Shown: positions 1 to 3,000 of the stretch, in pieces
Layout of the letters: each line of letters starts with the position of its first letter
Numbering within the stretch: the first letter of the stretch is position 1
IMG/VR virus record: IMGVR_UViG_2541047426_000030
Direction: 5' to 3' (one strand)
DNA length: 64,000 nt
From: a virus
Lineage: Duplodnaviria > Heunggongvirae > Uroviricota > Caudoviricetes
Program-made: the position numbers

Positions 1-3000
1 AAGCCGTCGCTGGTTGTATTTCTGCAACTGGAGTCGCTGCTGCTCCATACCCAGTGACGCATTCCGGTAATTCTGGTTAGCGTTAAACTCCCTCTCCTTC
101 AGTGCATAATTACGGTCGTCAACTTTGGCTCTGTAATCAAAGTTCCGCTGATCAACGTTTTTATTATGTTCAAACTGAGACTGCGCAAACTCAAAATCGC
201 GCTCGTTATTTTTCTGTTGCCGGGCAAGCTGTGCTTCACGCAGACCAAGCTCCTTACGACGGGTCATTGCCTGGTCAACGGTGCTGAATCCGGCAAGTAA
301 CCCCTGTGCAAATCCGCTCATTCACCACTCCTTAAAACAAAGAACCAGCAATGCCGCCAATTACTGCTCCAGCAACAGCACCAACAGGACCACCAACGGA
401 TGCGCCAATAGCCGCCCCCGTACCAATGCCCGTACCGATATTCTGCTTGTTCTGCGCTTTCTGTTGCGCCGCCATCTGTTTGTTCGCAGCCTCAATTTCT
501 TCACGTCGTCTGTCTGCGTCACTTATTCCCTGTAATGCCTCACGCCGCGACTGATTTGCAATATCCAGTAAACCGTATCCCATATTGCCCCCTTACGCTG
601 CCACCAGTTGGCCGCCAACACTCAGTTTCTGTCTTGCCGGTGCAGAAGCCCCCGTCAGAATATTCATCTGGCGATCCTGTTCGGCTTCACGGATACCATT
701 TTTCGCGCCAGCAATTGCCAGGGCATTACGTAACCCCAGCGTATTACTGTCGGGATTATCCGGGCGGTTTACCCCGTATCTCGCCATCTGGTTATCCTGC
801 GCCATCTGCGCTGTACGGAGACTGGAAGTGGCAAGGCCTCCCACCCGTGCAAGCTGTGCATTCATCAGACTGTTGTTCTCCCCAAGGTCAGCCAGCCTTG
901 CCACGCGGGGCAAATATCTGGTTCGCCAGTCGTCGTATTGTTGGCGTGTCAGCGCTGCTGACGTCTGCCAGTCACCCTGTGGGCGGTCTGCTCCTGAATA
1001 ACCAGCCCTTGCGAGAGTTTCGTATTTGCCATACTCCATAATTACAGTCTCCAGTTCTGAGCCTGATGCTGAATGGCATTAGCGCCGGTGCCAGGTGTTT
1101 TAGCACCGCCACTTCCTCCGCTACCGCCAGCCTTATGCATCGCATATGCACCTGCCGCACCCAGACCAGCGCCAACAAGAGAGGCTCGCCCCTGCTGTTT
1201 CGTAAACGCCGCCTGTGCATCCGATTTAGCTTTTGCCAGACTGCTGTCTGCCAGAGAGTTAAAACTCTGTAACGCATCCGCCTTCTGACCAGAACCGAGA
1301 GCAGCAACATCCTGTAGCCCGGCAACATACTTATCTGCCTGCGATACCTGCCCCCGTGTGGTTGTGTCAATCTGCCCGGTTACCTGGTCACTCTGGTTCG
1401 CATTCATTACCGCATTAAAACGACCACTGGATGGGTCAACGCCGGACTGAGCAAGATTACCCGCAAGCTCCTTCCGTGCTTCGCCAAACTGTTTCTGATA
1501 CCCCAGATTTGTGGTGCCAGCAATATTGTCGTACTGCTGCTCACTGTTCAGGTCATCGACCTTTTCCATGAAGTTATCTTCAGCCGGGCGGAGGATATTT
1601 TTGTAATCCTGCCACCCTTTCCAGGCCACTTCTTCCTGTGCTATTTGCGCTGCTGTTGGTTTTACTTTGGTATCACCACCGCCTTTACTTCCACCCATAA
1701 TGGCCCCCTGGATAACAAAAAACCCTGCCGGAGCAGGGTCAGAATGTGAATTACAATGTTGGTTTAAACACAATGATGAAAACTGTAGCAGTCAGACCGC
1801 TATCCTGAACACCATGAAGCCATCCTCATCATCCGGCATTCGCTCAAAGCCCAGTCGTTTTCCCAGCCGGATAAATCCCCGCCTTGCCGTATGGAACTCA
1901 GCCCAGCGTCCGCCAGCCAGATGGGTTAATGTCTTCACCTCCGGCAGGTAACGCTCAACGCTGTTACTCCCCGTACACACGCCCAGCAACACCAGAACAT
2001 AAGGGATACCATCAGCACTGAGCACAGAACGCAGCACCAAAAAGCCATCAGGTGCCTCAAAACAAAACGCCTGCTTTTTAAGGCAGGCGTCTTTAACTTC
2101 ATTCATAAATTCAGGGTTGCGGGAATTTCTCACAACACGCTGCATATACCAGAGAATTTTATCGTTCATTCTCTCACCTGAAACGGGTGCCATATCGGCT
2201 GAACCTCAGCAACCAGTTGACGGGGACTCTCGTCCCCGTCGCGGTTTTCCTACTGCTTACACTGTAAGAACGCCGCAAACTCCGCTCCCCACAAATTCAG
2301 CCGGAACTCACACAGTGAACCGTGCAACATCCAGATGGTGAAGATAACCGTCATGCAAATTGTGACGGTGATAAGCGATTTTTGCGACATAGCGCTTGAC
2401 TCCTTTTACAGAGAGGCGCTAACCTTCTACTTGCTTAAGGTACGAAGTGTTAGGGCCTCGGGTTAACGTTAAGTTGACTCGGGGCCTTTCCACATCAGGC
2501 CTTCAGGTTCACCCTCCAGCCATCAGCCGAAAGGCACCCACGCATAATTTACGGTTTTTGCCCTGTACGGGCAATAAAAAACCCGCCATCACAGCGGGTA
2601 GTAAACGGTTACCGGATACAGGTCAGAATTTCAGGCCAATGCCAGCAGTAACGCCACTCGTGCGCCAGTCGCCAGAGCCGAAACCTTCGTAAGCCACATC
2701 CAGTGTAACACTCTCATTCAGGTTAAACTGTGCACCTGCAGCCCACGCAAGGGAGGTTTTTTTCGTGCTGTTGCTTTCAGAAAATCCGCCACTACTGTTA
2801 ATATTGTCCTTAATTTTCAGGTCAGCGCTAACTTTAGCAACGCCCATCCCTGCCATCGCATATAAACTCATGTACTGATTAACCCGCCATGAAGGCCCCG
2901 CTAACAGACTCCAGTAATTCGCCCTGATATCCGTTCTGGCAGAAGCTGCCGGATTCTTAATCTTCCTGGTATGATCGGCTGACTGCACATCAATAAATGT

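Follow-up and report, generated by a model that had tools for sequence, protein, structure and literature searches.

A probable mok-less hok/sok-type cassette in 933W-type Shiga toxin phages spans the small RNA 24B_1

Introduction

In the hok/sok (parB) system of R1, a plasmid partition locus, a small Hok/Gef membrane peptide is encoded by a structured mRNA of about 350-400 nucleotides (nt). The 5' tac element of this mRNA pairs with a 3' fbi element in the full-length transcript and with ucb after truncation, and the last stem-loop of the truncated hok mRNA protects it from 3' exonucleases (PMC9841398). A short convergent antisense RNA, consisting of a 5' tail and a long hairpin, is complementary to the leader. 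Translation of mok is needed at least up to the hok Shine-Dalgarno (SD) sequence, and mok stops placed upstream of the hok start abolish toxicity. Here, a locus resembling this system is described in a 64,000-nt stretch of phage DNA (Caudoviricetes; IMG/VR record IMGVR_UViG_2541047426_000030), referred to below, at its full length, as the window. It lies between lom and the gene L0129/vb_24B_43, and predicted counterparts of the peptide, the structured mRNA, both 5' pairings, a terminal stem-loop that would outlast 3' trimming and the antisense RNA were all found there. It differs from R1 in several respects: mok overlaps hok in R1 and not in the window copy; the 46-amino-acid (aa) window peptide is about 34% identical to R1 Hok over 32 aa; the Rfam model RF01794 scores only 35.6 bits; the only conserved leader start (AUG at +45 or GUG at +47) lies 5' of the antisense target, unlike that of R1, which lies within it; and the cassette is a phage moron rather than a plasmid partition locus.

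The hokW-sokW locus of Sakai prophage 5 (Sp5) is a type I toxin-antitoxin (TA) system that involves RNase III and Hfq and produces its toxin when the prophage is induced (Takada et al. 2021, PMC8621323). Together with mokW it occurs in the same phage genomes as the window locus (Sp5/933W), with the same layout, an identical antisense -10 hexamer (TAACCT) and a GC-rich 3' hairpin in the corresponding position, with GCACCC about 35 nt beyond it. The two loci differ in position: hokW-sokW lies at 58.46-58.73 kb of 933W and the lom-adjacent hok at about 45.6 kb, which places hokW-sokW about 13 kb away, beyond the left edge of the window. HokW has 51 aa (MKQQKAM...), is 36% identical to the window peptide and is accompanied by an annotated mokW, and its RF01794 score is 113.5 bits. 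A reading of the window locus as the published hokW-sokW was rejected: in addition to the low identity and the distance, the start sequence of hokW is absent from the window, and no gathering-level Rfam sok match was found anywhere in it. hokW was found in 63 phage records with a 50-nt arm in near mode and the window cassette in 198 with a 411-nt query in distant mode, two counts that are not strictly comparable. Stx (Shiga toxin) phages of the 933W type carry two distinct hok/sok systems, and studies of them as hok/sok systems have dealt with hokW-sokW alone.

Among the NCBIfam models, hokA of E. coli K-12 gave the best match to the window peptide (38.4 bits). The two are 45% identical over 40 aa and share the ...WM...SLCE...E.AAFL.CK pattern with a second Cys near the C-terminus, but the score is far under the equivalog cut-off of 89, and in a 2026 preprint on Hok diversity (10.1101/2025.08.07.668861) the peptides belong to separate clusters at 60% identity (72 for the window peptide, 93 for HokA).

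The spacer next to lom is also known from phage Φ24B as the source of 24B_1. In induced Φ24B lysogens, Nejman-Falenczyk et al. (2015, PMC4426718) recorded the identical 20-nt read TAACGTTAAGTTGACTCGGG 2223 times, placed it in the interval from lom to vb_24B_43, and proposed TTGACT and CGCTAACCT as the boxes of a predicted promoter, p24B_1. Deletion of the region (Δ24B_1) gave less lysogeny, faster induction and a larger burst (PMC4426718). Later work (2023) reported that Hfq binds an 81-nt 24B_1 transcript with a Kd of 25 nM, and that ATP is lower in lysogens and in plasmid carriers, which was attributed to repression of sdhB (PMC10732415). In the published view, 24B_1 acts in trans as a microRNA-like regulator and derives from an 80-nt precursor by cleavage; the RNA gene predicted in the window has the same sequence, strand and promoter (PMC4426718, PMC10732415), and 24B_1 is read here as a fragment of a cis-antisense antitoxin RNA.

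Results

Locus and toxin gene

The region 2194..2622, in which the original prediction, made from the sequence alone, had placed a Hok/Gef-like toxin gene, is exactly the spacer between lom (stop at 2623) and L0129/vb_24B_43 (annotated start at 2193). A 601-nt region was 100% identical in many Stx phage records, and the window represents a 933W-type Stx-converting phage (Sepvirinae). The hok coding sequence (CDS; 2250..2390, minus strand) starts with ATG and contains 46 codons for the 46-aa Hok/Gef family toxin MSQKSLITVTICMTVIFTIWMLHGSLCEFRLNLWGAEFAAFLQCKQ. Both the hydrophobic helix and the LCE-x-R...E-x-AAF signature that had been proposed for this open reading frame (ORF) were recovered: the N-terminal half is hydrophobic, with a hydropathy peak at about residues 4-25, and the motifs read LCE-F-R (SLCEFR at residues 25-30) and E-F-AAF. 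Residues L26, C27 and E28 were at least 90% conserved in 30 relatives.

Comparison with family models, suggested earlier as a check, supported the assignment. The Pfam model HOK_GEF (PF01848) scored 33.2 bits (gathering score 22, E = 4e-8), with residues 8-44 aligned to profile positions 6-42 of 42, and the PHROG family phrog_251 ('MokW-like host killing') matched end to end with 85.8 bits. The identical CDS is named 'Hok/Gef family protein' by PGAP/RefSeq (WP_000078907.1) and is labelled 'MokW-like host killing' in RefSeq phage records. The gene had been described as easily missed, which holds for the original records of 933W, VT2-Sakai and Φ24B, where the ORF is unannotated, but not for current RefSeq. 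A protein search returned a tight family of 46-aa peptides from E. coli, Shigella and Salmonella, every one of them named Hok/Gef.

Two alignments were used, an earlier one of 17 loci and one of 21 distinct homologues, on which RNAalifold was run. The hok ORF was intact in 21/21 homologues. Gaps within the CDS were multiples of 3 only, and gaps of 1-2 nt were common in the untranslated regions (UTRs). The median ratio of nonsynonymous to synonymous rates (dN/dS) was 0.29 for the CDS and 0.15 for its C-terminal half (17 gap-free homologues).

The inducible expression proposed for testing toxicity has already been done by others, and the outcome, killing or arrest of E. coli by the induced peptide, was as expected. 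In the text and table of the Hok-diversity preprint (10.1101/2025.08.07.668861), the identical peptide is 72_1589 (construct LRP157), a member of the high-abundance cluster 72; 45 Hok homologues were induced with arabinose, and only 19_179, 60_1482 and 69_1540 are given as non-toxic, which leaves 72_1589 outside the non-toxic set. The toxin gene is already known: it is annotated in RefSeq, it is catalogued as cluster 72 and its peptide has been tested. That a Hok-family toxin gene sits inside a hok/sok-type cassette is very likely.

Antisense RNA gene

An antisense partner and a sok-like promoter had been anticipated, and candidates for both were found on the plus strand, from which the published 24B_1 is read. 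The -35 hexamer of the predicted Sok-like promoter is TTGACT (2396..2401, plus strand), identical to the -35 of p24B_1 (PMC4426718); most homologues read TTGCTC at this site. After a spacer of 18 nt follows the -10 hexamer TAACCT (2420..2425, plus strand), also the same as in p24B_1. It is kept in 19/21 homologues, with TATCCT in two Salmonella copies, and its complement is conserved in the 17-row alignment. The annotated sokW of 933W begins 7 nt after an identical TAACCT, and the primers for the 'promoter-less' sokW mutant alter this very hexamer (PMC8621323).

The predicted Sok-like RNA (2432..2489, plus strand; about 58 nt) consists of a 20-nt 5' tail and a hairpin of 16 base pairs (bp; 2452-2467 with 2473-2488), after which comes UUU; its ends are placed after the sokW annotation, the start at 2432/2433 by analogy. 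Its minimum free energy (MFE) was -27.8 kcal/mol (z = -4.3). The antisense strand folded better than the sense strand in 21/21 homologues (mean -25.8 versus -16.6 kcal/mol) because four hairpin pairs are G·U and their counterparts on the opposite strand are C·A. The RNA is complementary to nt 51-108 of the hok mRNA leader. Column identity in this target segment was 0.77, compared with 0.83-0.90 elsewhere; this contrast is modest, and hypervariability of the antisense target was set aside as an argument.

Relation to 24B_1

24B_1 TAACGTTAAGTTGACTCGGG had a single exact match in the window, at 2464..2483 on the plus strand. In the predicted Sok-like RNA these are nt 33-52, which take in the upper part of the 5' arm of the hairpin, its loop and the greater part of the 3' arm; the p24B_1 boxes TTGACT and CGCTAACCT equal the Sok-like promoter. 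The sequence match in itself identifies the putative antisense RNA as the source of 24B_1. With considerable confidence, 24B_1 can be taken as a fragment of the Sok-like RNA, and the published '24B_1 precursor' as either that RNA or a product of the leader region that was amplified from one strand or the other. The binding of the 81-nt 24B_1 transcript by Hfq parallels the contribution of Hfq to sokW action. The Φ24B spacer was identical to that of the window at 425/429 positions; three of the four differences fall in the target of the antisense 5' tail (2430-2450) and one in the 3' hairpin loop, a clustering that may reflect diversified antisense specificity in genomes with up to 9 cassettes.

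The published constructs were mapped on the window. The homology arms used for Δ24B_1 define a deletion of 2402-2590, 189 nt as published, which removes the hok promoter, the entire leader, 4/6 SD bases, and the antisense -10 and RNA. The insert primers of pUC18_24B1 map to 2137 and 2702, and the plasmid, which was used for complementation and, in 2023, for 'overproduction' (PMC10732415), contains the complete cassette, with the toxic ORF and the promoter that belongs to it. Because deletion and plasmid both involve the whole cassette, the published experiments do not distinguish effects of 24B_1 from those of Hok or of the full-length Sok-like RNA. The RT-PCR (reverse transcription PCR) amplicon behind the '80-nt transcript' corresponds to 2434-2514; it extends beyond the hairpin by 25 nt and is entirely contained in the hok mRNA leader.

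The words hok, sok and toxin-antitoxin are absent from PMC4426718, PMC10732415 and the 2025 review PMC12197685. A full-text literature search for 24B_1 with sok or toxin-antitoxin returned only the authors' 2017 review, in which the two topics are handled separately, and in the Hok survey (10.1101/2025.08.07.668861) 24B, Shiga and hokW are not mentioned. The equivalence of 24B_1 and a Sok-like RNA was found stated nowhere in the open-access literature searched.

Promoter, structure and 3' end of the hok mRNA

The predicted hok promoter lies on the minus strand directly after the lom terminator, with the -35 TTGCCC (2569..2574) and the -10 TAAATT (2546..2551). In E. coli-type homologues, TTGCC[CG] or TTGAAA is found 17 nt upstream of the -10 and the sequence beyond is unrelated between contexts; TA[AG]ATT, TAGAAT or TACAGT is conserved at the -10 site. 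Transcription is predicted to start at G2539, 7 nt downstream of the -10, where the conserved 5' end GGGUGCC begins. The predicted full-length hok mRNA (2185..2539, minus strand) is 355 nt long, and blocks of homology end exactly at 2185.

The MFE of this transcript was -153.7 kcal/mol, compared with -116.2 +/- 6.0 kcal/mol for shuffled sequences (z = -6.3), and its 5' end was paired with its 3' end; the same fold-back was obtained independently by RNAalifold from the 21 homologues. In the consensus structure of 77 pairs, 97.0% of cells were paired (37-40% when the partners were slid), with compensatory, double-sided changes at 17 pairs (1-11 in slid controls). The conserved fold-back elements for which the original prediction had asked are present, and covariation supports them. 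A tac-like 5' element (2523..2539, minus strand; nt 1-7 GGGUGCC and nt 10-17) pairs, in the full-length fold, with an fbi-like 3' element (2185..2202, minus strand; GGCACCC at 2191..2185 and UCAGCCG). Between columns 10-13 and 368-371, 4/4 pairs had double-sided changes in 8-12 of the 21 sequences and were 100% paired.

In the nascent or truncated fold, the tac-like element pairs with nt 50-59, the ucb-like alternative partner GAAAGGCCCC (2481..2490, minus strand; nt 1-11 with nt 50-59). This helix was 94% paired across homologues, against 24-69% in slid controls. Its pairs 10:51 and 11:50 showed 5 double changes each, and these 5' columns (10-11) covary with the 3' end as well as with the ucb-like segment. 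In silico, a 70-nt nascent RNA and an RNA without the last 33 nt both paired nt 1-11 with nt 50-59, and with the last 33 nt removed, the leader AUG became free, as did nt 101-108 within the antisense target.

The hok SD sequence AAGGAG (2400..2405, minus strand) precedes the AUG by 9 nt; in the full-length fold, its predicted partner is an upstream CCUCU (nt 127-130). A long-range helix over the hok start (helix 8, 13 pairs, within 2270..2390 on the minus strand) joins 2390..2375 with 2285..2270, the latter being the codons for AEFAAF. It was 98.5% paired, mostly with invariant pairs or G-U changes, and the hok AUG was paired in the full-length and truncated folds alike.

A hairpin in the 3' UTR (helix 15; 2219..2240, minus strand) lies 12 nt past the stop codon. 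The original prediction had placed it at 2221-2238 as a stable structure with the loop TCT, consistent with the structured 3' end of hok-type mRNAs. The hairpin is real and covaries: 4/9 pairs carried double-sided compensatory changes, 99.5% of cells were paired among the 21 homologues, and hokW has a counterpart at the same place. Its dimensions required correction, since the core (CGGGGAC, 2221-2227, with GTCCCCG, 2232-2238) extends to a stem of 9 bp (2219-2227 with 2232-2240), and the loop has 4 nt (TCTC as written on the plus strand, GAGA in the mRNA). A role as hok terminator was considered and rejected, as no U-run follows the stem on the minus strand; a terminator-like match of this region on the plus strand only is explained by a conserved AACCG:CGGUU helix of the hok 3' UTR. 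The hairpin is a structural element of the 3' UTR and not a classical terminator; by analogy with R1, it would be the last stem-loop of the truncated mRNA, shielding it against 3' exonucleases.

The gene downstream of hok, L0129/vb_24B_43 (1792-2193, minus strand), is annotated with 133 aa, and its annotated start (ATG 2193) lies inside the hok fbi element. It had no Pfam or NCBIfam match. Because the phrog_610 alignment begins at residue 9 of this protein and covers it only from there, its true start is probably ATG 2169 (MNDKIL...), which is preceded by GGTGAGAG.

Leader reading frames and mok

A leader ORF that enters hok, in or out of frame, was sought in the window and none was found; the mok-like overlapping frame that had been proposed for checking is not there. 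Stops upstream of hok block every in-frame extension of the leader. Two short ORFs are present on the minus strand, one from AUG 2495 (2495..2469; 8 codons, stop 2471..2469) and one from GUG 2493 (2493..2419; 24 codons, stop UAG 2421..2419). The GUG frame closes 28 nt before the hok AUG and 13 nt before the hok SD. The leader AUG and the preceding GAAGG are conserved in E. coli-type copies, both are absent from several Salmonella copies, and leader indels of 1-2 nt shift the leader frames freely. In 5/17 homologues (L008, L013, L014, L015 and L016), ORFs of 60-79 codons from the same AUG/GUG overlap hok out of frame. These were not accepted as mok, being unconserved; the other homologues have none. 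The locus fails the R1 definition on mok.

Boundaries and distribution of the cassette

The intrinsic terminator of lom (2581..2599, minus strand; an 8-bp stem followed by TTTTTT in the terminator scan) forms the upstream edge of the cassette. Homology to distant copies spans the window from 2559 to 2185 and then stops sharply, with unrelated flanks. With sensitive blastn, the 411-nt region was found in 1750/5426 complete E. coli genomes, at up to 9 places per genome. The cassette follows lom in Stx phages and ogr at the end of P2-like prophages, beside serS or ihfA; in lambdoid prophages it lies between gpJ and a tail-fibre gene. It also adjoins a type B L31 gene, and a copy is present on plasmid pUMNK88_Hly.

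A locus search with an alignment returned 7 loci, some on evidently contaminated assemblies. E. coli-type hok cassettes occurred on contigs labelled Xanthomonas pisi, Planococcaceae MAG and Vagococcus sp. (L004, L005 and L007); the Xanthomonas pisi copy lies on an 857-bp contig, and its peptide is 100% identical across residues 1-43. These cases most likely represent contamination or mis-binning of public assemblies. At the ends of two Salmonella P2-like prophages (L025 and L028, about 886-1341), the hok cassette stands beside a HicA/HicB type II TA pair, and two TA systems are stacked at the prophage edge.

Other features of the window

Rfam matches at gathering level placed AsxR (28757-28809, plus strand) back to back with STnc100 (28811-29016, minus strand). 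With three tRNAs (30425-30673, minus strand) they form the known small RNA/tRNA cluster upstream of stx in 933W-type phages. The isrK and C4-antisense RNA pair occurs twice on the plus strand (40283-40470 and 52243-52425), about 12 kb apart, which suggests either two modules of antirepressor/immunity type or a second prophage-derived segment in the window. An ALIL pseudoknot (23978-24094, plus strand, 121.5 bits), the frameshift element of IS3-family transposases, indicates an insertion sequence element inserted in the phage.

Discussion

The module at about 2574..2185 is most probably a self-contained type I TA cassette of the hok/sok type, carried as a moron by 933W-like Stx phages. A number of observations count against this interpretation or limit it. 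A consensus promoter scan listed 0 sites in 2100-2700; the hok and Sok-like promoters are both sub-threshold, the latter omitted because its -10 matches only 3/6 consensus positions, and because the scan lists none, the promoters were assigned from their conservation and their homology with sokW and p24B_1. The ends of the hok mRNA and of the Sok-like RNA are predicted ones, and the Sok-like hairpin is followed by only three U. At the hok leader, RF01794 (sok/hok leader up to the AUG) gave a full-length model match (2377-2539, minus strand, E = 7.4e-6) that stays under the gathering score of 59, and Rfam-based annotation misses the locus because of this low score. The NCBIfam HokA equivalog (NF007290) and Hok subfamily (NF007279; 22.7 bits, cut-off 73) models match the peptide below their cut-offs; because these matches are weak, the peptide is classed by its sequence as a divergent branch of the family and not as HokA. 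The seven core tac/fbi pairs (columns 1-7 with 375-381) are invariant and carry no covariation information. The covariation score of the hok mRNA structure was reached by 0/500 shuffles, but the structure was derived from the same, related sequences, which inflates the significance of the shuffles, and the covariation figures are supportive rather than probabilities. The toxicity of 72_1589 is taken from the text and table of the preprint and not from its figure (10.1101/2025.08.07.668861). The Δ24B_1 phenotypes, faster induction and a larger burst, are opposite in direction to those of ΔhokW-sokW. Finally, no mok overlaps hok in the window and, because toxicity in R1 requires mok, native expression of Hok from the window mRNA is putative.

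The published account of 24B_1 treats the transcript as the precursor of a trans-acting, microRNA-like RNA that represses d_ant and sdhB, promotes lysogeny and lowers ATP, with the small ORF irrelevant. The 2223 identical 20-nt reads after induction speak for it, as do the complementation in trans, by a plasmid, of the phenotypes of the 189-nt deletion and a weak in-vitro pairing of 24B_1 with the sdhB 5' UTR. Each of the genetic tools, however, also touches hok: the deletion (2402-2590) takes the hok promoter, the leader and most of the SD with it, and the plasmid insert (2137-2702) bears the complete cassette with the toxic ORF intact. The RT-PCR amplicon lies within the hok leader, and a fall in ATP is the expected effect of a Hok-type membrane toxin. 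Moreover, hok accompanies the RNA gene in P2-like and lambdoid prophages and on a plasmid, which makes hok, rather than a Stx-phage gene such as d_ant, its conserved partner (d_ant was not searched for in those genomes). As a full explanation, the microRNA account appears improbable, and a trans role of 24B_1 beside an antitoxin role is possible.

The locus could also be a toxin-silent relic, in which the RNA elements and the ORF are intact but the leader ORF stops short of hok, Hok is not made natively and there is no killing function. This would fit the absence of a mok overlapping hok in the window and in many homologues, the tolerance of frame-shifting indels in the leader, the R1 requirement for mok translation at least to the hok SD, the pairing of the hok AUG in both predicted conformations, and the finding that the phage suffers no harm from loss of the region. 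It is hard to reconcile with purifying selection on the peptide, which extends to lineages without a long leader ORF, with an ORF that has undergone in-frame indels only and is intact in all 21 homologues, with the compensatory changes that uphold all RNA elements, and with the toxicity of the expressed peptide as given in the preprint's text and table (10.1101/2025.08.07.668861). In addition, a ribosome terminating at the GUG ORF, 13 nt before the SD, could open the anti-SD helix. A relic is judged unlikely. That the ORF and the hairpin are chance features of an intergenic spacer can be dismissed almost entirely: the small size of the ORF and the empty promoter scan would agree with it, but the Pfam match is above the gathering score, thousands of copies are conserved, and purifying selection, covariation and experimental toxicity all argue against chance.

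For the preferred reading, a functional hok/sok-type cassette, an activation pathway can be proposed from R1 (PMC9841398) and hokW-sokW (PMC8621323), to which the present analysis contributes structure and covariation. The hok mRNA would be stable and, at full length, inert, with its leader and the hok start hidden by the fold-back and local helices. As its 3' end is slowly trimmed as far as the hairpin at 2219-2240, the fbi element would be lost, upon which the 5' end would refold onto nt 50-59 and open the target of the Sok-like RNA. As long as it is made, this unstable RNA would pair with leader nt 51-108, and the duplex would be destroyed, probably by RNase III. When its synthesis stops, Hok would be translated, enter the inner membrane, collapse the membrane potential and lower ATP. 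Because no mok overlaps hok, Hok synthesis would have to be controlled in some other way, through mRNA decay, the short leader ORF (which stops 13 nt ahead of the SD) or a standby-type mechanism; a ribosome terminating at the GUG ORF could open the CCUCU:AGGAG and UAGCGC:GCGCUA helices. For the phage, the cassette could serve prophage addiction, help in lysis as for hokW, or the exclusion of other phages.

As such, the toxin gene is no novelty; the interest lies in the connection with 24B_1, the anatomy of the RNA elements and the absence of mok. Three papers across a decade have read the antisense transcript as a eukaryote-like microRNA that reprograms host metabolism, and its overlap with a Hok leader is not mentioned in them. 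The mapping of the cassette offers a simpler and directly testable account of the reported ATP loss and life-cycle effects. The chances seem about even that the 24B_1 phenotypes (lysogeny bias, induction timing and ATP drop) are wholly or partly due to an unrecognised mok-less hok/sok cassette, deleted and supplied together with 24B_1. If so, toxin translation in this widespread Hok cluster would be controlled without the coupling to mok by which the R1 paradigm is defined. About one complete E. coli genome in three contains the cluster, and its lack of a mok frame makes it a convenient case for studying how Hok can be gated in other ways.

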